Positions 1,780-34,716 are shown, counted from the first letter of the stretch. The stretch: DNA of 64,000 bases from Patescibacteria group bacterium (GCA_028865095.1 JAGWLA010000004.1:8428-72427), one strand, 5' to 3'. The notes: generated by a model from the letters alone, not told the origin. Numbers and translations are program-made.

Positions 1780-3621
1780 CTATTTTTTCACGGCCTTCAG
1801 CCACTTCCGGTACCTCGTGTCCATGTCCTCGAACGACTTCGAGCTGTCGCATATCCGCTTCTTCCCGTCCATCATGACGATATGGCCGTCGAGGTCCACG
1901 GGCTTCTTGGAGAGCGGGACTCTCTTGAGGCGGGCGATCCGGGCTTTGGCGCGCGCCACGACCACCTCGCGGGAGGCGGTGACGCCCTTGATGTAGGCTT
2001 CGGGGCCGAGCTTCGCGCCGGTGGCCATCCGGACGAGCTTCTTGGCAGGATACAAGGACGCATACGACCAGATCCGGGCCAGCTCTTTCCCGACGCGCGG
2101 ATTATCGACGATATAGCCGTATCTCTTGAAGAAATGATCGCGCCACTGGGCGACGCCGAGCTCAGCCAGGCCGTAGCCGTGATAGTACGCGGAGCTCTCC
2201 CAGGAATAGATGTGCGGCAGGTTCAAGAGGGATATCGAATCTTCCGAGCGGTCCGCGTACCTCTTCGACAGCCGCGTGGCGATCTCGATCAGCTTCGCCC
2301 GGGTCAGCTTCCGGCATCCATAGACCTCTTTTTCGAAGAAGACGACCGAGATGATGCCCATCATGCCGAGCGGCCGCATGACGTGGGTGGCGGCGAGCTT
2401 GCGCTCGAAGAGGCTGAACGGGTACGGCTCGCCCTTCTCGTTGCGGGCGTAGCGGGAGCGCCACTCGATGCTGGAATACATGGTGTCCATGAACATGCTG
2501 TGGGTCTCGGCCCAGGAGACGGTCGAAGGCGGATATTCGGTGTTGATGCAGGCGTCCGGCTGCATGGAGTTCAGGCGGTCCGCGGCATGGCCGGCCTCAT
2601 GGAAGAGGACCTCGCCTTCGCGCATGCCGGCTCCGACCTGGCCGAGCACGGCGTTCGACGCCACGCCGCACGAAGCGGGGAGGCGCTTCCCGTCCTTGTA
2701 TCTGACGAGCACCGGGTAGTGGCAGAAGCCGTTATGGTGCTTCCCTTTCCGGTCGAGGAGGTCGAAGAGGACGGTGCCGCCCTTGAAGCCGACGCCGAGC
2801 GCGGCGAAGGACCTGCCCCAGCGGCCGAGCGCGTCCTCGAAGCGGAAGTACGGGTCCTCTTCTTTCGCGAAGTCGCCGGTCAAGTAGTAGCCGGTGTTCC
2901 AAGGCTTGCGCAAGCCCGGCTTCCCTTCCCGGGCCAGCTTCTTCTCCAGGGCGCGCACACCCTTGAAAGCGTAGCGGGTGCGGTCATATATCTTCTGGAA
3001 TATCGAGAAGAGCTCCTTCTTGGACATGTTCTCGTCGATGCGGGCCTTGTATTCGTAGAAATCGGCATAGCCGAGGGCGCGGGCATATTCGTTGCGCAGG
3101 CCTACGGCCTCGATGTAATCGTCGATGACGTCGTACGGCAGCTTCTCGAGGGCGTCGAAGCAGGCTTTGCGCACCCGCTCGTCGGGGTCGGTGCGCATGA
3201 TGAAGCGCATCCGGTTCTGGGAGGCGGGCACGAAGCGCTTCGTCGCCGGGTCGCGGTAGCCTTCTTTGCGCGACGTCTGGATGCGCATGATCTTGGCGTC
3301 GAGGGCGACGGCTTTTGCCTTGATGGCGGCGGCATGGGCGGGCGCCTGATAGAGGCTGAAGAAATGCGACCAGAGCTCGAGCCGCCTGCGGATCGGGCCC
3401 GCCGCCGCAGCGATGAGCGCATCGGTCTCCGCTTTGAGCTTCGGGTCCGACCGGAAAGCGTCGCGCGCCGCCTGCGCCTCATTCATGCGCTCGTCGACGC
3501 CGTGGTCGCCCATGTATGACGTCCAGAAATAGCTCTCGTATGCCTTGTGGAGCTTGGCATACTCGGCGTTGAGGCGGTCGAGATGCGCCTCTGCCTGTCT
3601 GTGAGATGCCCCCTTCTTCAT
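1780..3621 (-). CDS. pepF: M3 family oligoendopeptidase (PepF-like)
   Basis: 613-aa ORF with zinc-metallopeptidase HEXXH (HEAGHA) and overall M3B-like length/organisation. Confidence 0.8.
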
Positions 3622-3630
3622 CGCACCATC

Positions 3631-4245
3631 CTACACGAACTTCTTCAATATCTCAAAATCCTGCTTATGCGTCCCGCGCATGCCGCCGTTGTAGAGGGCG
3701 CTCGCCGGGTGGTAGAGGGCGACGACCGTCAGCGGCTGCGGCTCGTTGTTCTCGTCGATGAAGGTGGTCTCGAAAGACTTGCCGTGGATGCGGCTGATGG
3801 GCTCGAGCTCCAGGTCGAGGTCGTAGCGCCGCATGACGTAGCCCATGCTGTGGCGGCCAAGGGTGGCGATGACGCGGGGCTTGATGATCTTGACCTGCCG
3901 GTCGAGGAACGGCGAATAGAGGGCGATCTCTTCCGGCGTAGGGTCGCGGTTCTCCGGCGGGCGGTCTTTGACGATGTTGGTGATATAGACCTGCTCGCGC
4001 TTCAAGCCGATGCCCTCGATGAGCTCGGTCAGGAATGTCCCGGCGGCGCCGCAGAACGGGCGGCCGGTCTTGGCTTCGTTCTGGCCGGGCGCCTCGCCGA
4101 CGAACATGATCGTGGCGTCGTGGCTGCCCTCGCCGACCACCGGAAGGTAGCCGTTGGCTGTCCGGTACTCGTAAAGCGGCGAGTGGCTGAAAGCCAGCAG
4201 CTCGTCGCGTATCCGCTTCAGGGCGTCGTATTTGGAGGGGTTCAT
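3631..4245 (-). CDS. Uracil-DNA glycosylase, family 4
   Basis: 204 aa; motifs GEAPGQNE and GRPFCGAAG typical of family-4 (thermostable-type) UDG. Confidence 0.8.
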   Translation of the reverse strand: MNPSKYDALKRIRDELLAFSHSPLYEYRTANGYLPVVGEGSHDATIMFVGEAPGQNEAKTGRPFCGAAGTFLTELIEGIGLKREQVYITNIVKDRPPENRDPTPEEIALYSPFLDRQVKIIKPRVIATLGRHSMGYVMRRYDLDLELEPISRIHGKSFETTFIDENNEPQPLTVVALYHPASALYNGGMRGTHKQDFEILKKFV

Positions 4246-4305
4246 GCGGCTATTCTAGCCAATCTCGCCTTCTCGTGCTAGCGTATGCGCCAGGAGTTAA
4301 AAACT

Positions 4306-4914
4306 ATGAAAGCTGTGATATATGACTTCGACGGGACGCTCTGCGACAGCATCCCATGCTCATTCCAAGCGACGCAAAGCGTCTTTAAGGCGTTCGGGAT
4401 CGACCCGCCTCCTTTCGAGACGTACGTCAGGGCGTTCGGACCGCCGTATGCTCAGTACTATTGGGAGAACGGCCTTCCGACGAGCGTATCTGAAAGCGAG
4501 ATCTGGGAGGCATATCTTCCCAGAGCGCGGCTCGACCAAGCCCGGCTCTTCCCCGATGCCATCAGGTCGGTCGGCCTTCAGAAGAGGGCGGGATATCGTC
4601 TCGGCCTCGTCACCGGCAGGGCCGCCATGAAATTGCGGCGGGCGATGAACAGGCACGATTGCTGGCATCTCTTCGATTGCATCGTGTCGGAAACCACGCC
4701 GGACAAGACGCGAGCATTCGGTTGCGCATGCGCTGCCCTCGGCATATCGCCCTCCGATGCATACTCTGTCGGCGACCTTGCGAGCGACATGCGCGACAGC
4801 GCCAAGTCGGGCCTCGTGCCGATAGGCATCGTCAGGCACGGGCATGACGTGTCCGATATCCTGTTCGAAGCGGGCGCATCCAGGGTCATCCAGAAGCTTT
4901 CCGAGCTATTGTGA
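4306..4914 (+). CDS. HAD-superfamily hydrolase (phosphatase-like)
   Basis: MKAVIYDFDGTLCDS (HAD motif I DxDGT). AGGAG 8 nt upstream of this ATG; the track start at 4285 would include the RBS. Confidence 0.75.
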   Translation: MKAVIYDFDGTLCDSIPCSFQATQSVFKAFGIDPPPFETYVRAFGPPYAQYYWENGLPTSVSESEIWEAYLPRARLDQARLFPDAIRSVGLQKRAGYRLGLVTGRAAMKLRRAMNRHDCWHLFDCIVSETTPDKTRAFGCACAALGISPSDAYSVGDLASDMRDSAKSGLVPIGIVRHGHDVSDILFEAGASRVIQKLSELL

Positions 4915-4975
4915 CTTCCCAGAGGAGCTTATCGCAGCCCCAGACATCTCCGCCGCCGGATACCCGCGCGGCTTT

Positions 4976-5596
4976 TTACTTGTCTGACGGCTTGGTCTTC
5001 TTCTTTCCCCCGTTCCTGTTGACCCACCAGTCGTCGTTCTTGTTGTTGAACCACCAATCGTCGGATTCGGTGTCCAGTATCACCTCTGCGAGCTTTTGGG
5101 CGATGCCTGTCTTGAGCCTTTTGACCGCCGAATCGAACCATGTGCGGGCTCTGGTGTTGCCGAGGTCGTATTGCTCCTTGAGCGATATCAGCCATTCGAG
5201 CTGGTCGGCGTCCTTGGCGAGCTTCGCTTCATCCGAGGCCCGCTCTTCATACTCGTCGAGGGTCGTCTCGATGTCTTTCCCGAAAGGGACCTTGCTGGCG
5301 AGATCGTGGACCGCCTGGTCTTCGGCGACGGTCACGTATTTCTGGTGGACGTAGTTGAGATCAGAGGTCCTGCCCTCGGCGAGGTCGTGAAGCATGCACA
5401 TCTTCATGACTTTGAGGACGTCGACGCCGTCTTCCATCGAGGCGAGGATATAGCCGATGATGACCACCCTATTGGTATGCTCGGCGACGGTCTGGTCGCC
5501 GGTCCCGAGAAAATGGAAGCCGCTGCGGGGCGTCTTGGCGAGGATCCCCGCTTCGTAGATGAGATTGGCGATGCCCTTGAAATCCTTGTCTTTCAT
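4976..5596 (-). CDS. HD-domain phosphohydrolase (YfbR-like 5'-deoxynucleotidase family)
   Basis: 206 aa; H...HD...D signature (EHTNRV...MLHDLAEGRTSD). Directly downstream of the ATP-cone nuclease gene on the same strand. Confidence 0.7.
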   Translation of the reverse strand: MKDKDFKGIANLIYEAGILAKTPRSGFHFLGTGDQTVAEHTNRVVIIGYILASMEDGVDVLKVMKMCMLHDLAEGRTSDLNYVHQKYVTVAEDQAVHDLASKVPFGKDIETTLDEYEERASDEAKLAKDADQLEWLISLKEQYDLGNTRARTWFDSAVKRLKTGIAQKLAEVILDTESDDWWFNNKNDDWWVNRNGGKKKTKPSDK

Positions 5597-5617
5597 GCTA
5601 GCGATGCGGCCACTATA

Positions 5618-6463
5618 TCACTTCCCCTGCTCGATGACCATCTGGGTCTCGGCCAGGACCCGCTCCTTGGCGTCGCCGGCGACGCCGATCTGGTCGAGGA
5701 TGGCGGGGTCGCCGATGACGTCGATGCAGACGAGGACGCCGCGGCCGACGAGGTCGCGCTTCTGGGCGCGGGTGAGCGACGTCAGGGCGGTCACCGGATG
5801 GAGGCCGTTCCGCTCGATGATCTCGTGGAGGTTGCCATGGGCCGGGTAGTTCCAGCCGACCATCTTCAAGCCTTTGCATTCGCCGTAGCGGATGGCCATC
5901 TCGCTGAATTTGGTGTTGGTGACCAGCCAGAACTCGTCGAAGCGCCTTTTGACGCCCCCGTAATCGAGCAGCGCGCCCGACAGGTCTTCGCGCCGGGCTT
6001 GGATGTACAAGGCCACTTTCGCGTCCGATTTCAAGTCGAATTCGTTGTGGTATTTGGCTTCGACCAGGACGAGCTTGTCCGCCTTCCAGGCGACCACGTC
6101 CACTTCGTGCGATATGCACGAGCCCATGAGGGTCTGGTCGGTCAAGGCCTCATAGCCCCAGAGCTTGAATATCCGGGCCACGAAGCGCTCGAACGGGAAT
6201 CCGTCGGGGCCGAGCTCCATCATGGCCCGGCGGATGGAATATTTGACCGCCGCGCCGCGGTGATGCTTGGAGAGGAGGGCGAAAGCGCGGCCGTATATGT
6301 CCGCGGTGGTCATGCCGTCCTTCATGCCGCGCTCGACGTCGCCGACGATCTCTGCCACGGCGCTGTCGGCGGCGCCGACTTTGCGCAGCGACGCCGCCAG
6401 CTTCTCTTCCTGGAAGGGCTGCCGGGTGCCGTCGGACTTGGTGATGGTGAGCGGCGCGCTCAT
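5618..6463 (-). CDS. ATP-cone domain fused to Mrr-like (PD-(D/E)xK) restriction-endonuclease domain
   Basis: N-terminus LTITKSDGTRQPFQEEKLAASLRKVGA matches the ATP-cone (NrdR/RNR allosteric domain) consensus; C-terminal half has HEVDVVAW...LVLVEAKYH (D...EAK PD-(D/E)xK core). Start placed at the internal ATG (6463), 8 nt after the mnmA stop; the track start at 6529 overlaps mnmA. Confidence 0.7.
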   Translation of the reverse strand: MSAPLTITKSDGTRQPFQEEKLAASLRKVGAADSAVAEIVGDVERGMKDGMTTADIYGRAFALLSKHHRGAAVKYSIRRAMMELGPDGFPFERFVARIFKLWGYEALTDQTLMGSCISHEVDVVAWKADKLVLVEAKYHNEFDLKSDAKVALYIQARREDLSGALLDYGGVKRRFDEFWLVTNTKFSEMAIRYGECKGLKMVGWNYPAHGNLHEIIERNGLHPVTALTSLTRAQKRDLVGRGVLVCIDVIGDPAILDQIGVAGDAKERVLAETQMVIEQGK

Positions 6464-6470
6464 GCAAGGA

Positions 6471-7586
6471 TTATAGCACGCCCCCTTCGATGATCCCTCC
6501 GCCGAGGCATTCCCGCCCCGTCTCGTCATATATGACGAGCGATTGGCCCGGCGTCAGCGAATCTTGCGGCGCTTCGAACTCGAACGAGGCGGTCCCTGCC
6601 CCGATCGAGGCCGCCGTCGCCGGCGCGAGCGGGGCTCGATAGCGGGCGCGCGCCCTGAGCTTCCGGCCGGCCTCCGGCGCCCCCGAGATCCAGTTCGTGC
6701 CGGAGACGCGCACGGACAAGGCCCCTCCGGGAAGCGCCCCTCCGGCGTCCTTGGCTGCGACGGTCAGGGTGTTCGCGGCGATGTCCTTGGCGACGACATA
6801 GAGCGGCGCGCCGTCCGGCGTCTTATGCGCCCGGTCGATGTCGAAGCCGTGGCGCTCTCCCATGGTGAAGAAAAGGGCTCCGGGGTGGGTGCCGATCCGC
6901 TGCCCCTTCATGTCGAGGACTGCCCCGGGCCTGGTAGAGGGATCGTCTCCGGCCGCCCGCGCCAGGAACTCCTTCAGGTCCACTTTGCCGATGAAGCAGA
7001 GGCCCTGGCTGTCCTTCTTGGCGGCGTTGGGCAGGCCGAGCTTCCGGGCCAGGGCCCGCACCTCTGGCTTGGGCATGCCGCCGACCGGGAAGAGCGCGTG
7101 GGCGAGGCTGTCGCCTGTCAGCGTCCAGAGGAAGTAGGTCTGGTCCTTGTCCGCGTCCGCGGAGACGAGCAGCCGGCCGCCCTCGGACCGGGCATAATGC
7201 CCGGTGGCGATGAGGCTCGCGCCCTGGGCCGCGGCCCATTCCCGGAAAGCGCCGAACTTCACTTCGCGGTTGCACATGACGTCGGGGTTCGGGGTGCGCC
7301 CGGCGCGATACTCGGCGATCATGCGGTCGATGACGCCCTGCTTGTATTCGGCGGCGAGGTCGGCGGTGAGGAACGGGATGCCGAGATGGGCGGCCGCGCG
7401 CATGGCGTCGAGCCGCTCGTCGCGCCAGGAGCATTCCAGCCACTCGGGCTGCCAGACCTTGATGAAAGCGCCGACGACGTCGTAGCCGGCGCGCTTCAAG
7501 AGGGCCGCGGAGACGGAGCTGTCGACGCCGCCGGACATGCCGACGACGACCCGCGCCCCTTTAGAGATATTTCGACTTGTTGGCAT
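6471..7586 (-). CDS. mnmA: tRNA-specific 2-thiouridylase MnmA
   Basis: VVVGMSGGVDSSV PP-loop, conserved Cys residues, typical length 371 aa. Confidence 0.9.
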   Translation of the reverse strand: MPTSRNISKGARVVVGMSGGVDSSVSAALLKRAGYDVVGAFIKVWQPEWLECSWRDERLDAMRAAAHLGIPFLTADLAAEYKQGVIDRMIAEYRAGRTPNPDVMCNREVKFGAFREWAAAQGASLIATGHYARSEGGRLLVSADADKDQTYFLWTLTGDSLAHALFPVGGMPKPEVRALARKLGLPNAAKKDSQGLCFIGKVDLKEFLARAAGDDPSTRPGAVLDMKGQRIGTHPGALFFTMGERHGFDIDRAHKTPDGAPLYVVAKDIAANTLTVAAKDAGGALPGGALSVRVSGTNWISGAPEAGRKLRARARYRAPLAPATAASIGAGTASFEFEAPQDSLTPGQSLVIYDETGRECLGGGIIEGGVL

Positions 7587-8514
7587 TGTGCTGGTCGAGC
7601 GTCTGGGCGTAATGCATGGCGCCGTCCTTTCCGGAAAGATAATAGAGATAGGAAGTCTTGGTCGGCGTCACCGTGTCGACGATGGCGTCCAGCCCGGGAT
7701 TGTCGATAGGAGTGGGCGGCAAGCCTGCGTGGGCATAGAGATTGTACGGAGAGCTGGTGGCGAGGTCGGCGGCGGTGAGCTGGGAGGAGGATTTCCCTTC
7801 GAGGTAGAAGAACGGCGGGTCGACCTGCAGTGGCATGCCGATGGAGAGGCGGTTCCAGAGGATGCCCGCGATGATGCGCCGGTCGGTGCTGGACGCCGCT
7901 TCCCGCTCGACGATGGAGGCCATGGCGATGACGTCGCTCCGGCTCTTGCCGAAAGCTGCGATCCGGGAGGCGACGCCGGCGATCTTGTCCTCGAATTCGG
8001 CCCGCATATCGGCGATGACCTGGCTGGGCTGGACATTCACGGGCCAGAAATAGGTGTCCGGAAAGAGCGTCCCTTCGTACTTCTCGGCTTGGGCGTCGAA
8101 GCCGGCAGCGTCGAAGCCGGGGATGCTGCGCGACAGGATGGCGCCGATCTGGGCGACATTCGACCCTTCGGGGATGGTCGTCTTGACCAGCGGGAAGCCT
8201 TCGATGCCGTGGACCATGCGGTATGCGATCCAGAGCGACGATTGCGGGCCGTCGAAGGCGTACTGCCCGCTCTTCAGGCCGGTGGTGCCGTCGAGCAAAG
8301 TGGCGTATATCCTGAAGAGCAGGCGCGACTTGATGAGCCTTTTGGACGACAAGAGGTCCGCCGCCTGGCTCAAAGTGGCGCCTTTCTCGATGGTGACGGC
8401 CGTTCCCGCCGGGAAGCCGGCCGGCGGCGTCGAATAGGCGGCGACGGCGCATATGCCGGCGATGCCCAGGATGGCGGCCGCCGATATCGCTATCATTGAT
8501 GCGCGTCTGGTCAT
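7561..8514 (-). CDS. mltG: Endolytic murein transglycosylase MltG (YceG family)
   Basis: N-terminal TM anchor plus YceG-like domain; 317 aa; 26-nt overlap with the mnmA start. Confidence 0.8.
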   Translation of the reverse strand: MTRRASMIAISAAAILGIAGICAVAAYSTPPAGFPAGTAVTIEKGATLSQAADLLSSKRLIKSRLLFRIYATLLDGTTGLKSGQYAFDGPQSSLWIAYRMVHGIEGFPLVKTTIPEGSNVAQIGAILSRSIPGFDAAGFDAQAEKYEGTLFPDTYFWPVNVQPSQVIADMRAEFEDKIAGVASRIAAFGKSRSDVIAMASIVEREAASSTDRRIIAGILWNRLSIGMPLQVDPPFFYLEGKSSSQLTAADLATSSPYNLYAHAGLPPTPIDNPGLDAIVDTVTPTKTSYLYYLSGKDGAMHYAQTLDQHNANKSKYL

Positions 8515-8526
8515 ATCGGGAAAAGG

Positions 8527-9801
8527 CTATACGGGCAGGTTCGTAGGAGCTTCCGCTTTCTTCGACGGCACGCGCTGCAGGCCGGGCGTGGCGGCGACGG
8601 AGCCGGGCAGATGGTATATGGTGGCGAGGGCCTCGGTGTTCAGCACGAAGGTCTTGCCTTTATAGGGAGGATAGAAGACCGAGCGCCTGCGGTAGGCCTT
8701 GAGGAACTTCTTGATCAAGTAATTGCGGCGCGTGTTCTTGTAGTCCTGCCACGGATAGTCGAACTGCTGGGTCCACTTGTCGCCGTTCGGCCGGAAGCCG
8801 TTCAGGTGCTCGGTATTGAATTGCTTCAGGCTCGAGATGAGGCCTCCGATGCCGAACGGGGTGTCGAACGATTTGCGCGGCGCCGCATACAGCGCCCTCA
8901 CGGCCACGTCGAACGGCAGCTTCATCAGGCTGCGCTCGATGGCGGCCACGGTCTCGGTCTCGCCTTTGGTGAAAGTCGGCACCAGGGCGAAAGTGCTTCC
9001 TTTGGGGGTGGCTCCCGCCACCTTGGTCTTGGCGTCGCGCAGAAGGGTCTCGTTGACGATCTTGGTCGCTTTGTCCTTCCAGAGGTCGGTCTTCTTCCAT
9101 AGGTGGCCGGGCTTCTTCTGCTCGCCTTTATGGGCCCTGACCACGAATTGGAACCAGGCCTGCTCGTTAGGGCGGAGGCTGCCGAGCCACTCGATCATGT
9201 GCACCAGCGGGTCGACCTTGTATTCCTCCTTGGGGTCTTTGTCGAGACCGTAGTCGACATAGGTCTTGATGGGGTAAGCGTCCTCCTTGTTGAGCTTGAA
9301 TTCCATGCAATGGACCTTCATGGTCGCAGGGTCGTATTGGTAGTCCGTAGCGTAATCGGGCCGCTCGGAGATCTCGATGCCCGGATACTGGGAATAGAGC
9401 GCCGACATGAGGTTGTTCTTGCGGCGGTCTTCGGTCCATATCATGAACTTGACGTTGCCCTCGATGGATATGATCTCGAGCGAGTACCACGGCCGGGTCT
9501 CGCCTTTCCAGTATTGGGAGTAATTGCTGCCGTCCGACGTGTTATGGATGGAGACGAGGACGGTCTCCATGGCCAGCGGGGATTTGAAGGTGTCCTTGGG
9601 CAGCTTGAGCTCGAGTATCGTGTATTTCAGCCCGAGGAACTGCTTGAGGCGCACGTAGCGCATCCAGACATCCCAGAAGAGGACGCCGAGGGCCGCGCAC
9701 AGGCCGATGGGAGAGAGGAGCACCACGTAATGGGCGGCCAGCGGCCACAGCGACGAGTGGAACTGCTCCGTGAGCGTAGCGACGATCGTATCGTACGTCA
9801 T
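8527..9801 (-). CDS. Hypothetical membrane-anchored protein (N-terminal TM segments, lineage-specific)
   Basis: 424-aa ORF with coding-like composition and hydrophobic N-terminus; no family recognised. Confidence 0.55.
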   Translation of the reverse strand: MTYDTIVATLTEQFHSSLWPLAAHYVVLLSPIGLCAALGVLFWDVWMRYVRLKQFLGLKYTILELKLPKDTFKSPLAMETVLVSIHNTSDGSNYSQYWKGETRPWYSLEIISIEGNVKFMIWTEDRRKNNLMSALYSQYPGIEISERPDYATDYQYDPATMKVHCMEFKLNKEDAYPIKTYVDYGLDKDPKEEYKVDPLVHMIEWLGSLRPNEQAWFQFVVRAHKGEQKKPGHLWKKTDLWKDKATKIVNETLLRDAKTKVAGATPKGSTFALVPTFTKGETETVAAIERSLMKLPFDVAVRALYAAPRKSFDTPFGIGGLISSLKQFNTEHLNGFRPNGDKWTQQFDYPWQDYKNTRRNYLIKKFLKAYRRRSVFYPPYKGKTFVLNTEALATIYHLPGSVAATPGLQRVPSKKAEAPTNLPV

Positions 9802-9846
9802 ATGCGCTCTAGTATAGCAAAACGGCGGCTATCGTGCCGCCGTCTC

Positions 9847-10893
9847 TCATGCCGCCGCCGCGACGGAGTATCTCCCTTCCTTGTCCCGCTTGAAGTACCG
9901 GGGATTCTGGAGATTGACCGCGATGGTGTTCTCTTTGACGTAGCGCTCCTTCATGACCTTGCCGACGATCTCTTCCTTGGTCAGAGGGCCGCTCTTCTCG
10001 ATGATGCTCTTGATGACGTCGCGGACGATGCCGGGAGCGTAGCCCCATTCGGCGAGGGCGTAGAGGCCGCGGCCGACCAGGACGAAGCGCTTGTCCTTGA
10101 TGAGCTCGTTGTGGGTCGTCGCCACGTGGGCTTTCTTGTCGAACAGCTTCTCGATCTGCTTGGCGACGTCGCGGAAATGGATCGGAGAGCCGTGCTTCCT
10201 GATGACCAGGAAGGCATAGTCCCTGACGCCTTTGGTATGGATATTGGACGATTCGGTCTTGCCCCAGTCGCCCATGGCGTTCTTGCCGACTTTCTTGGAC
10301 AGGGAGAGCCAGCGCTTGACGATCTCCTGGTTCTTATAGCGCTCGGAGACGTCTTCGAGGTGGTGGAGGAGGCGGTTGACCATCTCCGATTCCGGGAGGA
10401 GGTCGTCGGTCGAGAGGCTCCCGTAGAGCTTGTGCAGGGCGTCCTCGACCTTGCGGGCGAGGTCCTCGTTCACGTGCCAGCGGTGCTTGAAGTCGTCGTC
10501 CTCCTTGCGCTTCTCGAACGGCTCGCCGATGACGAGCAGGAAGTGGACGTGGTTCTTCAGGCCCTGGTCCTTGGAGACGTGGCCGAGGAAGTCGTCTTCG
10601 ACGACCACGCCGCCGAGCGAATGCAGGAGCGCCTCGATCTCGGCGAACGCGGCTTTCTCCTGGGAATAGGCATCCGACTTGCGGATGGTCCCGAGGGCGT
10701 ACGCCTCGATCTGGCGGACGCGCTCGCGGGTGATGTCATACTTCTTGCCGATGGCGTCGAGGGTCATGCGCTCGACCGACTTCCCCAGGCCGTAGCGGTA
10801 TATGACCACGTCCTTGGCCCTGTCCGGGAGGCACGAAAGGAGCCTCTTGACGACGGCTTTGGGCTTGAAAGACAGGGCGTGCGATGTGGCCAT
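9847..10893 (-). CDS. Sigma-70 region-4 (HTH) domain-containing protein
   Basis: N-terminal DAIGKKYDITRERVRQIEAYAL resembles sigma-70 region 4.2; no region 2 recognised; 348 aa. Confidence 0.6.
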   Translation of the reverse strand: MATSHALSFKPKAVVKRLLSCLPDRAKDVVIYRYGLGKSVERMTLDAIGKKYDITRERVRQIEAYALGTIRKSDAYSQEKAAFAEIEALLHSLGGVVVEDDFLGHVSKDQGLKNHVHFLLVIGEPFEKRKEDDDFKHRWHVNEDLARKVEDALHKLYGSLSTDDLLPESEMVNRLLHHLEDVSERYKNQEIVKRWLSLSKKVGKNAMGDWGKTESSNIHTKGVRDYAFLVIRKHGSPIHFRDVAKQIEKLFDKKAHVATTHNELIKDKRFVLVGRGLYALAEWGYAPGIVRDVIKSIIEKSGPLTKEEIVGKVMKERYVKENTIAVNLQNPRYFKRDKEGRYSVAAAA

Positions 10894-11027
10894 GGGGATG
10901 GATTATTTGTTGTTATGCTGTATACGTGGCGTATGTTATATCAGTTGCTTGTGCGAAAGTCAATTGTGTGGGTTCCTGCTCGCGGCTCTCTATCCGAAAA
11001 GCCTCAAAACAATACCATTATGGTGAG

Positions 11028-15026
<3,999 letters not shown>

Positions 15027-22936: not shown

Positions 22937-24169
22937 TTATATCAGACTCTTCCTCCTCCGGGCGCGATGGAAAGCGAGGGCGAAGCGGTGCGCTTCGGCA
23001 TTGGCCAGGACGATGGCCGCTTTGTGGCGGCGGGCCAGAGCGGGGTCGCCGAGAAGATGGGAAGCCCGATGCCGCTCGTCTTTGGTCACGGCCACGACGG
23101 GGATGGATATGCGCCGCGCCTTGAGGACCGCTTCTGCCGCCCTCTTCTGGATGTCGTTGCCGTCCACGGCGATGAGGTCGGGGAACGGCCATTCGGGATG
23201 GTCGAGCCGGCGCGAAAGGATCTCGGCCAGGCTGGCGGCATCGTCGTTGGCCTGGCGCCGCACGATGAACTTCCGGTACTGGCCGGGCTCCGCTTCCCCG
23301 CCGGCGACGACGGTCATGGCCCCGGTCACGTTCGTGCCCGAGATATGGGCGATGTCATAGGCTTCGATGCGGAACGCCCCGCCTTCCTTCCCCGCCCCGC
23401 GGGCGCTCTCCTGCTTAATGAGAGAGACGTCGTCGATGTGGTCGATGGCATAGAGCAGGCGCTTGTAGCGCGAGGCGTCTTCGAAGCGCATGTCCGCCGC
23501 CGCCGCGGCCATGTCGGCGGCCAGCCCTTTCCGGATCAGGCGCTTCCTGCCCTCGAAGAAGAGGGTCAGATAGCGGATGGTCTTCAGATAGCGGGCGTGG
23601 GCGTCCGGCCCGTCGGCTCGCGGCGACCGGCCGAGGGCGCGATAGAAGGCCTCGTGCCGGGGGTCGGCCGCTTTCTTGTCCCTGAACGGGAAGAGCTTGC
23701 GCAAGATGCGCAAGGCTTCCTTGACCAGGCCCGCCTGGACGAAAGGGCCGAAAGCCGCGCTGACGGAGTACGGCAGCTCGCCGCGCAGCTTCAAAGAGTC
23801 GAAATCGCGGGCCCGGGCCAGGAAGACCCGCGGCCAGGGCTCGTCGGTGACGATGACGTACTGGTCGCTCTTGTCGTCGCGCTCGTCGACGTTGTAGCGG
23901 GGCTGGTAGCGCTTGATGAGCGCGGCCTCGAGGAGGATGGCTTCGAGGACCGAATCGGTCTCCTGCCAGGTCACCGCCGCCGCTTTGACGACCATGTCCA
24001 CGATGCGGGGGCCGCGCGTCTCGATGAGGTCGGCGGCGAAATAGCTGCGGAGCCGGTCGCGGAGCGAAGTGGCCCTGCCGATGTAGAGGGGGCGCGTGCG
24101 CGCGTCCCTCCATACGTAGACGCCCGGCGCGTCGGGAGCCTTGAGCTTGGCCAGCTTTTGACTAGTCAT
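22937..24169 (-). CDS. uvrC: Excinuclease ABC subunit C (short form lacking the C-terminal HhH domain)
   Basis: GIY-YIG N-domain (GVYVWRD...YIGRATSLRDRLRSYF) and C-terminal RNase-H-like nuclease region (IAVDGNDIQKRAAEAV...IPVVAVTKDE). Start at MTSQKLAKLK; the 534-aa track ORF adds a low-complexity extension. Confidence 0.8.
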   Translation of the reverse strand: MTSQKLAKLKAPDAPGVYVWRDARTRPLYIGRATSLRDRLRSYFAADLIETRGPRIVDMVVKAAAVTWQETDSVLEAILLEAALIKRYQPRYNVDERDDKSDQYVIVTDEPWPRVFLARARDFDSLKLRGELPYSVSAAFGPFVQAGLVKEALRILRKLFPFRDKKAADPRHEAFYRALGRSPRADGPDAHARYLKTIRYLTLFFEGRKRLIRKGLAADMAAAAADMRFEDASRYKRLLYAIDHIDDVSLIKQESARGAGKEGGAFRIEAYDIAHISGTNVTGAMTVVAGGEAEPGQYRKFIVRRQANDDAASLAEILSRRLDHPEWPFPDLIAVDGNDIQKRAAEAVLKARRISIPVVAVTKDERHRASHLLGDPALARRHKAAIVLANAEAHRFALAFHRARRRKSLI

Positions 24170-24196
24170 GGAATGTAGAGTATTGTAATGGCGGGC

Positions 24197-24210
24197 GGAA
24201 CGCAAGTTCC
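24197..24210. promoter_or_regulatory. Predicted LexA (SOS) box GGAACGCAAGTTCC (GAAC-N4-GTTC type) directly upstream of a TACAAT -10-like element and the uvrC start
   Basis: Perfect palindrome seen in sequence; the same half-sites recur upstream of the lexA operon at 55421-55436. Confidence 0.5.
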
Positions 24211-24224
24211 ATCGAGGGAAAACC

Positions 24225-24614
24225 TTGAAAATCGAGAGGTGCACGATGAATGATAACGATACGAATGATGCCTCCCCGATGCGGGAAGGCGGTCTCGACC
24301 ATGGACGGAGCTGGCCCGCGTGCGACGGGGGCGAACATGACGACGGGCTCGCTGAAGAGCTCAGCCCATGGCCTCCCCGGGTCAAGCCGTGCCGAGACAT
24401 CCTCGTCGGCGGGGCCATCTGGCTCGCCCTTATTGCCTTGTGTGGCGCAGCGGCCGTCTGCTGCGTCGAATTCAGAGCCGCCAGGATAGCGCTCTTCGTG
24501 CTTCTGGGGATCGGCATCGCCGTGCTGATATCCATCGGCATCTGCTATCGCGTAGCGCGCTTCATCGACAGCTACGACCAAGACAAGGAAAGCTCCTCCG
24601 GAGGCGAGCCATGA
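24225..24614 (+). CDS. Hypothetical small membrane protein (two TM segments); TTG start in track, alternative ATG at ~24246
   Basis: Divergent from uvrC; hydrophobic C-terminal half (ILVGGAIWLALIALCGAAAV...). Confidence 0.35.
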   Translation: MKIERCTMNDNDTNDASPMREGGLDHGRSWPACDGGEHDDGLAEELSPWPPRVKPCRDILVGGAIWLALIALCGAAAVCCVEFRAARIALFVLLGIGIAVLISIGICYRVARFIDSYDQDKESSSGGEP

Positions 24615-24959: not shown

Positions 24960-27590
<2,631 letters not shown>

Positions 27591-32165: not shown

Positions 32166-34325
32166 TTACCTATTTTTTCTGCCAGGCATCCTTCTTACCT
32201 TCACCCCCACCTTCTCCTGCAGCTTGAACAGCTCATCGCGTATCAGCGCCGCGGTCTCGAAATCGAGCGCTTTGACAGCCTCGGCCATCTGCTCCTCCTT
32301 CATGCGCATGAGCTTCTTGGGGTCGGTGCGCATCAGCTCTTCGTCGATGCGGACCATGTCGCCGACGGCTTTCTCGTGCTCGGTGCGGAGCTGGTCGGTG
32401 ATGTCGTGGATCTTCTTGTGTATCGTCTGCGGGGTGATGCCGTGCTCCTTGTTGTAGGCGACCTGGATGGCGCGGCGGCGGTCGGTCTCCTTGATGGCGT
32501 TGTCCATGGAGCCGGTCAGGACGTCGGCGTAGAGGATGACCCGGCCGGCGGCGTTGCGGGCGGCGCGGCCGATGGTCTGGATGAGGGCGGTCTCGGAGCG
32601 CAGGAAGCCTTCCTTGTCGGCGTCCAGTATGCCGATAAGCGACACTTCAGGAAGGTCCAGGCCTTCGCGCAGGAGGTTGACGCCGACCAGGATGTCGTAC
32701 TTCCCTTTCCGGAAGTCAGTCAGGATGGTGATGCGCTCGATGGTCTTGACGTCGCTATGAAGGTACGCGGCCTTGATGTCCTTCTCCTTGAGGAATTCGG
32801 AGAGGTCTTCGGCCATCTTCTTGGTGAGGGTGGTGGCAAGGACGCGGTCGCCTTTCTTGATGGTCTTCTCGGCTTCCTCGATGAAGTCGAATATCTGGCC
32901 TTTATAGGGAGTCCGGGCACGTTCTCCCTCAGCGAACGGATGTCGCGCCTGCTGGCGCGCATCCTCGTTCTCGGACGCCTTCGCGTCCTCCGAAAGTCGC
33001 TTCGGGAGAAGTGCCCCAGACTCCCTGATCGGCCTGATCTCCACTTCAGGATCGACGAGGCCCGTCGGACGGATCACCTGCTCGACGGTCTGCCGGGCGG
33101 TCTCCTTCTCGTACGGCCCCGGGGTGGCGGAGGTGTAGATCATGGGGCCGACGCGCTCGAGGAACTCCGGGAATTTGAGCGGGCGGTTGTCCTTGGCGGA
33201 CGGCAGGCGGAAGCCGTGCTCGATGAGGGTCTCCTTGCGCGACGCGTCGCCGGCATACATGCCGTTCAGCTGGGGGATGGTGACGTGCGACTCGTCGATG
33301 ATGGTCAGGAAGCCAGGCTTGCCGTCCTTGTCGCGGGGGAAATACGAGAGCAGGGTGTCCGGCGGCTCCCCGGGCATCTTGCCGGAGAAATGGCGGGAGT
33401 AGTTCTCGATGCCGTTGGCGTAGCCGATCTCCTTGATCATGGAGAGGTCGTACTTCACCCGGCGCTTGAGGCGCTCGGCTTCGAGCGGCTTCCCCGCCTT
33501 CTCGAGGGCTTTGAGCCGGTCGGCGAGCTCGGCCTGGATGGTCTTGTAGGCCCGCTCGCTCTGCTCGTCCGACGAGATGAAATGCTTGGCCGGGAACACG
33601 AAGACGGCGTCATGCGTCCCTCTGACGGCGCGGGAGACAGGGTCGAGCTCGACGATCGGGCGGAGGACGGGGCCGTCGTATTCGACGCGGTATATGGTCT
33701 TGTCGCTGACCGGCATGATCTCGACGGTGTTGCCGAGGGCGCGGAACTCGCCCGACTTCAGGTCGGCCGTGGTGCGGACGAAATGGATGTCGATGAGCTT
33801 GCGGATGAGCTCGGCCCGCGACAGCCCCATGCCCGCTTTCAGCTTCAGATTCACCTTCTCGTACTCTTCGGGCGAGCCCAAGCCGTATATGCACGAGACC
33901 GACGCCACGATGATCACGTCTTTGCGGGTCAGCAGCGCCTGGGTGGAGGCGTGGCGCAGCCGCTCGATCTCCTCGTTGATCATGGCCTCCTTCTCGATGT
34001 AGGTGTCCGACGAGGGAATATATGCCTCTGGCTGGTAGTAGTCGTAATAGGAGACGAAATAGTGGACGGCGTTGTCCGGGAAGAACTCGCGGTACTCTTG
34101 GGCGAGCTGGGCGGCGAGGGTTTTGTTATGGGCGATGACGAGAGTGGGCTTACCGTACGCGGCGATGACGTTGGCGGCCGTGAAGGTCTTGCCCGAGCCG
34201 GTCACGCCGAGCAGGGTCTGGCGGTCATAGCCTTTCGCCAGGCCTTCGGTCAGGGCGGCGATGGCTTTGGGCTGGTCGCCGGCGGGCGACAGAGCGGTGG
34301 CGAGGGTGAAAGGGGTCTTCGGCAT
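32166..34325 (-). CDS. uvrB: Excinuclease ABC subunit B
   Basis: Start at MPKTPFTLATALSPAGDQPKAI (matches the UvrB N-terminus); helicase motifs GVTGSGKT, beta-hairpin region, C-terminal UvrB/UvrC interaction domain. The track start at 34376 adds 17 aa. Confidence 0.9.
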   Translation of the reverse strand: MPKTPFTLATALSPAGDQPKAIAALTEGLAKGYDRQTLLGVTGSGKTFTAANVIAAYGKPTLVIAHNKTLAAQLAQEYREFFPDNAVHYFVSYYDYYQPEAYIPSSDTYIEKEAMINEEIERLRHASTQALLTRKDVIIVASVSCIYGLGSPEEYEKVNLKLKAGMGLSRAELIRKLIDIHFVRTTADLKSGEFRALGNTVEIMPVSDKTIYRVEYDGPVLRPIVELDPVSRAVRGTHDAVFVFPAKHFISSDEQSERAYKTIQAELADRLKALEKAGKPLEAERLKRRVKYDLSMIKEIGYANGIENYSRHFSGKMPGEPPDTLLSYFPRDKDGKPGFLTIIDESHVTIPQLNGMYAGDASRKETLIEHGFRLPSAKDNRPLKFPEFLERVGPMIYTSATPGPYEKETARQTVEQVIRPTGLVDPEVEIRPIRESGALLPKRLSEDAKASENEDARQQARHPFAEGERARTPYKGQIFDFIEEAEKTIKKGDRVLATTLTKKMAEDLSEFLKEKDIKAAYLHSDVKTIERITILTDFRKGKYDILVGVNLLREGLDLPEVSLIGILDADKEGFLRSETALIQTIGRAARNAAGRVILYADVLTGSMDNAIKETDRRRAIQVAYNKEHGITPQTIHKKIHDITDQLRTEHEKAVGDMVRIDEELMRTDPKKLMRMKEEQMAEAVKALDFETAALIRDELFKLQEKVGVKVRRMPGRKNR

Positions 34326-34716
34326 GCGACCACTATAGCGCATCGGCCGCATTCGGCAAACAAAAAACCGGCGCACAGGGCACCGGCTGGGGCGGGCTCG
34401 GAGAGCGCGATGGCATCCTCAAGGGACGCATCGATCGCTGCTCTCCGGCCCGCCGGACATCAGTCTCCTCCGCCATTCAGGCCGGGGAATCGCTCTTCGT
34501 CGGACGGGTCCGTCGGACCGATCCCTGAAGGCGCTTCAGCGGTGCGGATGGGGTGCGGATCTTCCGGCTCGCATACAGGAGCCGGGTCGGCAGATCCGTT
34601 GTTCGCAAAAGCCAAGCCTTGGCCTTGCGAATGTCGTGGATTAGTTGGCATGATAATGTGCTCTGCTCATTTCGTCCTCGCTCCCATAGGCTTATGCCGA
34701 CGAGACGGACGAAAAG

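Follow-up and report, generated by a model that had tools for sequence, protein, structure and literature searches.

The described proteins closest to the one reported here include two kinds. Studies of ATP-cone domains have so far dealt with ribonucleotide reductases (RNRs) and NrdR, where the cone is the master switch of dNTP synthesis, and the NrdR residues in contact with the phosphates and the base of the nucleotide are K50, R51, E56, F58, and K62 (PMC9110341). The other is AF1548 of Archaeoglobus fulgidus, for which D38, E51, and K53 are the predicted catalytic residues and which was predicted to be a restriction endonuclease in a 2007 GOS study (PMC1821046); this prediction was the only literature that we found on AF1548. 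A full-text literature search returned no paper on a fusion between an ATP-cone and a nuclease. Here we describe such a fusion, encoded in a 64-kb stretch of DNA from a Patescibacteria group bacterium, all of which was analysed and which is referred to below as the window.

The start of the nuclease gene was supported by a database protein (P0001) of 281 aa and 100% identity, and the AF2 model of its product had a pLDDT of 94.9 and a pTM of 0.89. According to Pfam and PDB matches, the protein is composed of three domains, namely an ATP-cone, a PD-(D/E)xK nuclease, and an AF1548-like helical domain (Table 1). An earlier reading of this DNA, made from the sequence alone, had placed the nuclease gene and a neighbouring HD-domain gene at the same positions, and both ORFs were confirmed there.

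Table 1. Features of the nuclease locus, in positions of the window.
Feature	Positions	Strand	Basis or remark
ATP-cone / PD-(D/E)xK nuclease / AF1548-like_C gene	5618..6463	-	281 aa; stop codon 5618-5620; ORF and Pfam
ATP-cone domain, residues 1-88	6200..6463	-	Pfam, Foldseek
Predicted nucleotide-contact residues K9, F17, K21	6437-6439, 6413-6415, 6401-6403	-	Alignment to NrdR
Hinge G85-P86-x-G88-x-P90-F91-E92, nearly invariant	6188..6211	-	Last cone helix to first nuclease helix
PD-(D/E)xK (Mrr_cat) nuclease domain, residues 89-204	5852..6199	-	Pfam, conservation
Predicted catalytic set E92, D122, E135, K137	6188-6190, 6098-6100, 6059-6061, 6053-6055	-	
AF1548-like C-terminal helical domain, residues 205-281	5621..5851	-	1Y88 alignment, Foldseek
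HD_3-family hydrolase gene (YfbR/HDDC2-like fold)	4976..5596	-	206 aa; Pfam HD_3, YfbR-like
mnmA	6471..7586	-	Upstream of nuclease gene; Pfam tRNA_Me_trans, 9.3e-68
Family-4 uracil-DNA glycosylase gene (UDG4)	3631..4245	-	NCBIfam UDG_fam4, 186.9 bits (cutoff 125.3)
HAD gene	4285-4914	+	Opposite strand; with the HD gene, separates UDG4 from the nuclease gene here

Over residues 6-65, the N-terminal region scored 31.4 bits with the ATP-cone profile PF03477 and thus passed its gathering score of 25.8; a Cyclobacterium homologue was also above the cutoff with 28.8 bits. In Foldseek, the cone of the AF2 model, with its beta-hairpin and four helices, superposed on the NrdR cones 9a6n, 7p37, and 9gex with an rmsd of 1.6-1.9 Å over 81-84 columns, and it also matched the cones of the human and E. 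coli RNRs. Thus, the N-terminal ATP-cone claimed from the sequence alone was borne out by both profile and fold. K9, F17, and K21 of the window protein are the counterparts of K50, F58, and K62 of NrdR, and conservation at these positions was 89-100% within each of three groups, which together held 380 homologues; in a profile alignment, K9 and K21 fall on K53 and K65 of E. coli NrdR. The position of NrdR R51 is occupied by Ser in the window protein, as in E. coli NrdR, and by Ser or Ala in its homologues, while the position of E56, the adenine-contacting Glu of NrdR, is Gln in the window protein, Gln or Glu in Patescibacteria, and Val or Ala in Bacteroidota. Given the matching fold of the cone and the conserved equivalents of K50, F58, and K62, the natural working model is a switch of oligomeric state driven by nucleotides, and by analogy with NrdR (PMC9110341) we infer that the cone may switch the oligomeric state of the protein.

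The central region, over residues 88-196, scored 22.7 bits with Mrr_cat (PF04471), above the gathering score of 21; homologues scored 27-35 bits with this profile. D122, E135, and K137 were invariant among 91 diverse sequences and 100% conserved across the three groups of 380 homologues, where E92 was conserved in 99-100%. Further conserved residues of the nuclease domain were H119, E120, R157, D160, and T182-N183-T184, of which the first four, together with the catalytic set, were 89-100% conserved in the 380 sequences. The sequence-only reading had called this domain an Mrr-like PD-(D/E)xK nuclease with a D...EAK core. The core is real, formed by D122 and E135-A-K137, and since its predicted catalytic residues proved to be conserved when checked among homologues, the assignment was upheld. 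The hinge between cone and nuclease was also nearly invariant. G85 was invariant in the 91 diverse sequences, P86, G88, P90, F91, and E92 were each at least 90% conserved, and conservation of the hinge within each of the three groups was 80-100%. The hinge ends on E92, a catalytic-type glutamate.

The conservation of these residues also bears on whether the protein cleaves at all. It could be an NrdR-like regulator, in which the nuclease-fold and helical domains would form a non-cleaving DNA-binding module in place of the zinc ribbon and would serve ATP/dATP-dependent control of transcription. The cone is indeed nearest to NrdR cones in sequence and structure, its segment ITKSDGTRQPFQEEKL aligning with VVKSNDVREPFNEEKL of E. 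coli NrdR, and no second ATP-cone ORF, whether of NrdR or of an RNR, was found in the 64-kb window, although the absence of NrdR from a window of that size says little about the genome. We regard this explanation as very improbable, since conservation of 89-100% at E92, D122, E135, and K137 and at H119, E120, R157, and D160 is unexpected for a module of pure binding, the zinc ribbon is absent, and the neighbour in other phyla is another nuclease and not an RNR operon.

Residues 93-277 matched AF1548 (PDB 1Y88) with E=5e-27 in phmmer and E=1.6e-51 with the family profile, and Foldseek aligned the model to 1Y88 with E=4.9e-15 and a TM of 0.79 normalised to the target. D122, E135, and K137 fall in the same columns as D38, E51, and K53 of AF1548. 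The threshold of the AF1548-like_C profile (PF22357) was reached in homologues, whereas the C-terminal domain of the window protein itself reached no Pfam threshold, that of PF22357 included. We consider the AF1548-like domain to be a probable nucleic-acid-binding module. This third domain (residues ~205-277) does not appear in the sequence-only reading.

The HD gene lies downstream of the nuclease gene at a spacing of 21 nt. It scored 90.7 bits (1.2e-25) with HD_3 and 33.9 bits with YfbR-like (cutoff 25.9) in Pfam, and the PDB relatives of its product were 1XX7, the archaeal AF1432, and human HDDC2. YfbR/HDDC2-type 5'-deoxynucleotidases thus share their fold family with it. With the NCBIfam 5'-deoxynucleotidase equivalog NF003009 it scored 21.5 bits, which is far below the cutoff of 122, and we therefore assigned the gene to the YfbR/HD_3 fold family and gave it no particular substrate. 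The earlier description of this gene as an HD-domain hydrolase of the YfbR type accordingly holds for the HD/YfbR-like family but not for the 5'-deoxynucleotidase equivalog. A promoter-like site was seen just upstream of the HD gene, running from 5640 to 5612.

The two genes had also been proposed as a linked pair, and the gene neighbourhoods of homologues did not bear this out. Of 22 related Patescibacteria loci, 2 had an HD gene as the next gene downstream of the nuclease gene and 4 had one no farther than 6 kb from it, and there was none in 43 non-redundant loci of the non-Patescibacteria (Bacteroidota/Chlamydiota-type) branch. The position of the HD gene varies between genomes, and the gene tends to adjoin UDG and not the nuclease. 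The HD hydrolase is a lineage-variable neighbour and no conserved partner of the nuclease, and the lack of conserved linkage tells against the pairing that the sequence-only reading had put forward. In the window, the HD hydrolase could plausibly act on released dNMPs.

In Patescibacteria, the nuclease gene occupies a fixed block made up of LeuRS, sigma70_r4/HARE-HTH, DUF8128, YceG, MnmA, and the nuclease, often with UDG after it, and mnmA was directly upstream of the nuclease gene in 18 of the 20 Patescibacteria loci for which upstream sequence was available. In the window, 7 nt separate the stop codon of mnmA from the start of the nuclease gene (TAA-tccttgc-ATG); the earlier reading was right in placing mnmA upstream, while the spacing of 8 nt that it gave needs correction. 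The two genes are probably co-transcribed. The remaining annotated genes of the window are also of the housekeeping type (YchF, G6PD, Ddl, and UvrABC). Across the Patescibacteria loci, the divergence of the nuclease correlated with that of its neighbours (r=0.94 for the sigma-like gene, 0.68 for MltG, and 0.60 for mnmA), and mean identity was 51% for the nuclease and 53% for mnmA. The nuclease copy in the window is an ordinary member of its family, residing in a housekeeping block and vertically inherited. Gene order that is kept within one bacterial class may be caused by descent and not by function.

Downstream of the nuclease gene, the neighbour met most often in Patescibacteria was UDG4. 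Among the 22 loci, 6 had it within 100 nt and 11 at a distance of up to 2.3 kb, and in one further locus (L106) it was directly upstream of the nuclease gene. This neighbour suggests a structure- or lesion-specific repair endonuclease that works with UDG4, in which the ATP-cone would license cutting when dATP and ATP allow repair synthesis. Consistent with such a role are weak Pfam similarities to Hjc (Holliday-junction resolvase), the label "Holliday junction resolvase" given by JGI to some members of the family, and the presence of UvrA, UvrB, and UvrC in the same window. The layout of a nuclease followed by a helical domain also recalls repair nucleases of the XPF/Mus81 type, although neither XPF nor Mus81 was among the top 50 Foldseek matches. 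The linkage to UDG is confined to one class, where order is kept by descent, and was seen in 0 of 43 non-redundant loci of the other branch, in which the nuclease is accompanied by an RNA-type beta-CASP enzyme and by enzymes of nucleotide metabolism. We therefore consider the repair explanation improbable.

The family is large and extends well outside Patescibacteria. With the window protein as query, 1028 matches were obtained at E<=0.001, and at E<1e-30 there were 421 clusters at 50% identity, nearly all of ~280 aa. Clusters at 90% identity numbered more than 6500 with a Criblamydia homologue as query and more than 7500 with a Pontibacter homologue. The three-domain layout is common to thousands of homologues, and the family spans Patescibacteria, Bacteroidota, and Chlamydiota; the metagenome scan used a Bacteroidota-type alignment as query and is thus biased to the Bacteroidota-type branch. 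Database names for the family include "restriction endonuclease", which many entries bear, and "ATPase", and the NCBI product name is "ATP cone domain-containing protein". The former two are probably misleading, "restriction endonuclease" being annotation carried over from the Mrr_cat domain.

The non-Patescibacteria branch is ~40% identical to the window protein, and its gene neighbourhoods are of a different kind. Among its 43 non-redundant loci, a beta-CASP+RMMBL gene was immediately downstream of the nuclease gene in 21 and anywhere in the locus in 27. Near the nuclease there was a thymidine/AMP-phosphorylase-family gene in 20 loci, Prs in 19, a P-type ATPase in 17, and PPK2 in 11. The nuclease/beta-CASP operon was also found on plasmids of Pontibacter and Criblamydia and in Cyclobacterium, and in a Chlamydiia MAG the two genes overlap by 10 nt. 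The surrounding islands are of a starvation/low-oxygen type and carry Usp, CstA, phosphoketolase, acetate kinase, and glycogen phosphorylase. In Bradyrhizobium, low oxygen induces an operon with a thymidine-phosphorylase-family gene, Prs, and MBL, and FixK2 targets this operon (PMC6515984, PMC9104804). As a possible direct tie between the nuclease and low-oxygen regulation, we considered an FNR/FixK-type box (TTGAT-N4-ATCAA) in front of the non-Patescibacteria nuclease genes; a 9/10 match was present in 5 of 81 loci against ~1.5 expected, which was too weak, and the candidate was rejected. Neither the window nor the 19 Patescibacteria loci of the genome collection (L001-L019) yielded a beta-CASP, phosphorylase, Prs, or PPK2 gene. 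Since the metabolic operon is known from a branch of ~40% identity and these partners are absent from these Patescibacteria loci, the role of the nuclease may differ in Patescibacteria.

The sequence-only reading had raised an anti-phage system formed by the nuclease and the HD hydrolase. A related explanation is an abortive-infection effector, formed by the ATP-cone nuclease with or without the HD hydrolase and triggered by infection-induced shifts in ATP and dATP, much as cyclic oligoadenylates trigger CARF-nuclease effectors. The combination of a sensor with a PD-(D/E)xK nuclease does parallel Can2, Card1, and Cdn1, whose nuclease domains were among the Foldseek matches; type IV restriction enzymes have Mrr_cat as their catalytic domain, and two homologues were found on plasmids. 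PADLOC, on the other hand, gave no significant match for the nuclease (best E=0.009, to Can1, then 0.041) and no match for the HD protein, and the HD linkage on which a two-gene system would depend is the rare one described above. No relative of the nuclease was detected by tblastn in 50,697 phage genomes, none was found in IMG/VR with one conserved-motif pattern (as a single pattern, a weak negative), and a BFVD fold search returned partial matches to single domains only. No methyltransferase, toxin, or mobile-element neighbours of the nuclease were seen, and both of the plasmid homologues lie inside metabolic operons and not in defence or mobility modules. The nuclease gene, which starts 7 nt after mnmA, belongs to a stable housekeeping block and has diverged in step with its neighbours, and the family is unusually uniform in length and sequence for a defence gene. 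An abortive-infection effector is thus highly unlikely in our view, and the locus does not represent a new defence system of nuclease and HD hydrolase. The role in nucleotide homeostasis or DNA repair, which the sequence-only reading had offered as a fallback, fits the evidence better than defence.

On balance, we lean towards a cytoplasmic, vertically inherited nuclease that is gated by adenine nucleotides and serves nucleic-acid turnover and nucleotide salvage. In such a protein, the NrdR-like ATP-cone would bind ATP, dATP, and ADP, and binding would shift its conformation or oligomeric state, as it does in RNRs and NrdR. The GPxGxPFE hinge, which ends in E92, may pass this shift on to the nuclease, whose sequence-nonspecific activity would be turned on or off. 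The breakdown of nucleic acid would thereby be coupled to energy or (d)NTP status and would feed turnover and salvage. In Bacteroidota and Chlamydiota, the nuclease gene is the first of an operon with the beta-CASP RNase-like gene, after which genes for AMP-phosphorylase-like, Prs, and PPK2 enzymes often come, while in Patescibacteria it rides in the housekeeping block after mnmA.

A more far-reaching version of this role can be put forward tentatively, and we regard it as possible though rather doubtful. The family may represent a third class of ATP-cone proteins after RNRs and NrdR, that is, endonucleases under the control of energy charge or dATP which start a programmed breakdown of nucleic acid, either imported or the cell's own. 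Its partner in Bacteroidota and Chlamydiota would be a dedicated beta-CASP RNase, and from the products of the two, the AMP-phosphorylase-like, Prs, and PPK2 enzymes would recover ribose, bases, and ATP when the cell starves or oxygen is low. Patescibacteria are commonly regarded as lacking de novo nucleotide synthesis, and they would have retained the nuclease as a core gate of salvage. If the model of a gated nuclease is right, the ATP-cone, which is a switch of dNTP synthesis in RNRs and NrdR, would also gate the degradation of nucleic acid, and one sensor would link the supply of nucleotides with their recovery. We believe that the family deserves testing, as it is very large, has a uniform architecture, and is a fusion for which our literature search found no paper.

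The window protein can be compared with several known systems. With the CARF-nuclease effectors (Can1, Can2/Card1, and Cdn1) and with VC1899 it shares the logic of a small-molecule sensor joined to a PD-(D/E)xK nuclease, and the nuclease domains of these effectors were among its Foldseek matches (E about 1e-3, TM about 0.2-0.3); weak similarities to Pfam Card1_endonuc and PADLOC Can1 occur in the family. In those effectors the sensor is a CARF domain and the ligand a cyclic oligoadenylate, whereas the window protein has an ATP-cone and presumably senses a housekeeping adenine nucleotide. The window gene has no CRISPR or cyclase context and lies in no defence island. The likeness is one of the nuclease fold alone. 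The Mrr_cat domain is shared with Mrr and with type IV restriction enzymes of the MspJI type, and MspJI and AspBHI were among the Foldseek matches. These enzymes carry an N-terminal reader of modified DNA (winged-helix or SRA-type); none was detected in the window protein, where an ATP-cone takes its place. The distribution of restriction genes is patchy and mobile, in contrast to the window gene with its fixed position after mnmA and its parallel divergence, and, unlike the type IV enzymes, the family is uniform in length, and its genes lie within operons of housekeeping or metabolic type.

AF1548 has in common with the window protein the layout of a nuclease and a C-terminal helical domain. 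It is without an ATP-cone, its chain being 199 aa and the alignment beginning at its residue 22. AF1548 is an archaeal structural-genomics protein; the match to it points to a fold and to a probable active site but says nothing of the biology. With NrdR and the RNRs, the window protein shares the ATP-cone, as supported by both HMM and fold. The RNR catalytic domain is absent from it. NrdR has a zinc ribbon and carries its cone at the C-terminus; in the window protein, which has no zinc ribbon, the cone is the first element, from residue ~5 onwards, and is followed by a nuclease domain as its output.

The 281-aa protein matched the Pfam ATP-cone model over residues 6-65 (31.4 bits, cutoff 25.8) and the Mrr_cat model over residues 88-196 (22.7 bits, cutoff 21), confirming the fusion of an ATP-cone to an Mrr-like nuclease domain that had been read from the sequence. 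A C-terminal helical domain, overlooked in that reading, was recognised because residues 93-277 matched PDB entry 1Y88 (E=5e-27, and 1.6e-51 with the family profile). 1Y88 is the Archaeoglobus protein AF1548, for which the 2007 Global Ocean Sampling study (PMC1821046) predicted a restriction endonuclease. Pfam names this domain AF1548-like_C, and it scored above threshold in homologues and below it in the window protein alone. The cone begins at residue ~5, so the protein lacks a signal peptide and any other extension at its N-terminus. An AlphaFold2 model built from 91 sequences (pLDDT 94.9, pTM 0.89) was compared with the PDB by Foldseek, and the top match was again 1Y88 (E=4.9e-15, TM 0.79 normalised to the target), followed by NrdR cones (rmsd 1.6-1.9 Å over 81-84 columns); cones of ribonucleotide reductases (RNRs) and the nuclease domains of Can2, Cdn1, VC1899 and MspJI were also matched.

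Conservation was assessed in 380 homologues from three groups, namely Patescibacteria, representatives at 50% identity and Bacteroidota-type sequences. Among the catalytic-type residues, E92 was kept in 99-100% and D122, E135 and K137 each in 100%, and H119, E120, R157, D160 and N183 were 96-100% conserved. D122, E135 and K137 share alignment columns with D38, E51 and K53 of AF1548, for which a catalytic role was predicted (PMC1821046). The cone residues K9, F17 and K21 (89-100% conserved) align with K53, F61 and K65 of E. coli NrdR, equivalent to K50, F58 and K62 of S. coelicolor NrdR, which touch the bound nucleotides (PMC9110341). Two positions are less well kept: the Arg beside the first cone Lys is Ser, as it is in E. 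coli NrdR, and the adenine-contacting Glu of NrdR is Gln in the window protein and variable across the family. These data show that the NrdR-like cone and the PD-(D/E)xK active site of the window protein are both intact and that it has a helical domain of the AF1548 type. A non-cleaving, NrdR-like regulator is another conceivable reading of such a protein, which we consider very improbable. The nuclease domain also carries a C-x2-H ... C-x2-H pattern (C116, H119, C136, H139), invariant in the Bacteroidota-type branch, with C136 changed to Ala in 98% of Patescibacteria members, including the window protein; the pattern is possibly that of a metal or redox site lost in the Patescibacteria lineage.

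The window protein gave 1028 matches at E<=0.001 in a database clustered at 90% identity. The best 120 of these were all 279-308 aa long, 59-100% identical and named after Patescibacteria lineages (Taylorbacteria, Paceibacterota, Minisyncoccia and similar). At E<1e-30 there were 421 clusters, whose 50%-identity representatives were all read; nearly all were ~280 aa with full-length matches, and most were nearer to non-Patescibacteria members than to the window protein. Homologues of ~40% identity occur in Bacteroidota (Pontibacter, Cyclobacterium, Sporocytophaga, Flavobacterium, Chitinophaga, Psychroserpens, Saprospiraceae) and Chlamydiota (Criblamydia, Chlamydiia MAGs), and at 90% identity the Criblamydia query retrieved more than 6500 clusters and the Pontibacter query more than 7500. 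In databases the family goes under generic names: "ATP cone domain-containing protein", "restriction endonuclease", "ATPase" or "Holliday junction resolvase".

Gene positions of the locus stood as first described, except that the spacing between the mnmA TAA and the nuclease ATG is 7 nt, not 8; the nuclease start agrees with that of a 100%-identical 281-aa database protein (P0001) from a Patescibacteria MAG, and 21 nt separate the nuclease TGA from the HD start. No terminator-like site was found in window 3500-7800. A match to a sigma-70-like promoter (TGGTCA-17-TATAGT, with an upstream TG) lies within the nuclease 3' end, shortly before the HD start, and this consensus match hints that HD could have its own promoter. 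YceG/MltG and mnmA overlap by 26 nt given the listed mnmA start, which may be an artefact of the choice of an upstream start.

Positions of the features discussed (window positions unless a locus, L, is named)
Feature	Position	Strand	Basis
LeuRS	11028-15026	-	ORF, Pfam/NCBIfam
sigma70_r4 + HARE-HTH protein	9847-10893	-	ORF, Pfam/NCBIfam
Conserved 424-aa protein	8527-9801	-	ORF
YceG/MltG	7561-8514	-	ORF, Pfam/NCBIfam
MnmA	6471-7586	-	ORF, Pfam/NCBIfam
YceG/MltG-mnmA overlap	7561-7586	-	
ATP-cone nuclease, 281 aa	5618-6463	-	ORF, Pfam
Promoter-like site	5612-5640	-	
HD_3 hydrolase (HD)	4976-5596	-	ORF, Pfam/NCBIfam
HAD hydrolase	4285-4914	+	ORF, Pfam/NCBIfam
Family-4 uracil-DNA glycosylase (UDG)	3631-4245	-	ORF, Pfam/NCBIfam
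M3 peptidase	1780-3621	-	ORF, Pfam/NCBIfam
uvrC	22937-24541	-	
uvrA	24960-27590	-	
uvrB	32166-34376	-	
Block from LeuRS to M3 peptidase	1780-15026; L001-L017, L106-L108		
HD + UDG	3631-5596; L002 6897-8069; L009 9890-11100; L015 6882-8063		
Recurrent operon, Bacteroidota/Chlamydiota	L023 8001-16186; L020; L021; L026-L105		
AAA_28-family ATPase	L025 4676-5230; L110 9622-10083; L111 7866-8489		

Among 22 related Patescibacteria loci, of which 20 had upstream sequence, mnmA lay directly upstream of the nuclease in 18 of the 20, and the order LeuRS, sigma-like gene, DUF8128, YceG, MnmA, nuclease was nearly invariant. When identity to the window protein was compared across loci, the nuclease varied in step with the genes beside it, with r=0.94 for the sigma-like gene, 0.68 for MltG and 0.60 for mnmA, and its mean identity of 51% was on a par with the 53% of mnmA. 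Fixed order together with divergence in step is the pattern of vertical inheritance under housekeeping-type constraint. Annotated window genes beyond the block are likewise housekeeping (YchF, G6PD, Ddl, UvrC, UvrA, UvrB), the three uvr genes lying on one strand within ~12 kb.

Across many Paceibacteria-type genomes the block extends through the nuclease to (HD), UDG and the M3 peptidase. Its most conserved member is the sigma70_r4/HARE-HTH protein (348 aa; 59-82% identity across loci where mnmA has 45-65%), possibly a lineage-specific transcription factor. The 424-aa protein had no Pfam match in the search run, and its orthologues, kept throughout the block, carry the label DUF8128 (PF26449) in precomputed annotations. 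LeuRS is 1332 aa long. Between its catalytic core and its editing domain, Pfam placed two NUDIX stretches and a serine-hydrolase/alpha-beta-hydrolase domain (residues ~273-545); the second NUDIX-like box, further downstream, was spotted only by eye in the translation. LeuRS of two related Patescibacteria genomes has 810 and 877 aa and lacks these domains. NUDIX and hydrolase inserts are unusual in a tRNA synthetase.

HD directly followed the nuclease in 2 of the 22 loci (L002, L015) and lay within 6 kb in 4, and UDG was found downstream within 100 nt in 6 and within 2.3 kb in 11. Because HD, when present, mostly lies immediately upstream of UDG (L002, L009, L015), it is associated with UDG rather than with the nuclease, which suggests a link between dUMP/dNMP handling and uracil excision. 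In the window an opposite-strand HAD hydrolase, with no match in related loci, separates the two. With UDG so often nearby, a dNTP-licensed repair nuclease acting with UDG is another reading, and one we regard as unlikely.

In Bacteroidota and Chlamydiota a recurrent operon begins with the homologue; it was found on a Pontibacter plasmid, on a Criblamydia plasmid and in Cyclobacterium. The downstream genes encode a beta-CASP + RMMBL metallo-hydrolase akin to both Cas14 and the archaeal RNase aCPSF1, an archaeal-type "thymidine phosphorylase" (PRK04350/TIGR02645, just below the AMP-phosphorylase equivalog cutoff) and a Prs-type ribose-phosphate diphosphokinase, often with a 229-aa protein (below-threshold DUF3108-like Pfam match only), a PPK2 polyphosphate kinase and a P-type ATPase. 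Metagenomes searched with a Bacteroidota-type alignment yielded another 80 loci, which with loci L020-L025 were reduced to 55 representatives at 90% identity; in 43 of them, 1.5 kb or more of sequence was available downstream. A beta-CASP gene was immediately downstream in 21 of the 43 and anywhere in the locus in 27, with the phosphorylase in 20, Prs in 19, the P-type ATPase in 17 and PPK2 in 11. HD, UDG or mnmA occurred in none of these non-redundant loci, and, HD adjoining in so few Patescibacteria loci, the nuclease and HD do not form the conserved pair proposed by the sequence-only reading. The nuclease and beta-CASP genes of a Chlamydiia MAG overlap by 10 nt without further operon genes, and this two-gene unit is probably the core. 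The window and 19 genome-collection Patescibacteria loci were searched for the beta-CASP, phosphorylase, Prs and PPK2 partners, with no match. In Flavobacterium, Psychroserpens and Chitinophaga there is no beta-CASP partner, and a small AAA_28-family ATPase of 153-207 aa lies beside or near the nuclease.

The islands around the nuclease genes contain a universal stress protein, CstA and a small AAA_28 ATPase as well as phosphoketolase, acetate kinase and glycogen phosphorylase, and the last three also flank the Criblamydia plasmid operon. In Bradyrhizobium, a thymidine-phosphorylase-family/Prs/MBL operon (bll3117-3115) is induced by low oxygen as a direct FixK2 target, and phosphoketolase and acetate kinase go along with it in this response (PMC6515984, PMC9104804).

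An anti-phage role had also been considered for the nuclease. PADLOC gave no significant match, no relative was present among 50,697 phage genomes or found in IMG/VR scanned with one motif pattern, the BFVD viral structure library returned single-domain partial matches only, and both plasmid copies lie within metabolic operons. Unlike restriction or abortive-infection genes, the nuclease has uniform length, high conservation and a fixed chromosomal position. For these reasons we hold defence to be highly doubtful, and a novel nucleotide-sensing defence pair with HD, lacking conserved linkage as well as PADLOC or phage support, found no backing.

We instead favour a role, inferred from gene context, in nucleic-acid turnover and nucleotide salvage coupled to energy or (d)NTP status. 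By analogy with NrdR and RNRs (PMC9110341), adenine nucleotides on the cone would alter its conformation or oligomeric state, and this change would switch a nonspecific nuclease through the hinge G85-P86-x-G88-x-P90-F91-E92, which is nearly invariant, connects the last cone helix straight to E92 and would be a natural route for allosteric coupling. The window HD, possibly a dNMP hydrolase, and UDG would fit such nucleotide-pool housekeeping as non-obligate partners.

Our literature search found no paper on the ATP-cone-nuclease fusion and no description of the nuclease/beta-CASP/phosphorylase/Prs/PPK2 operon as one unit, and the sole statement on AF1548 in the literature searched was the 2007 prediction. 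The architecture is already in Pfam and NCBI annotation, and the window copy is therefore a further member of a known, uncharacterised family. Set against characterised systems, it is a new variation on the sensor-plus-nuclease theme, in which the ATP-cone is given a new output.
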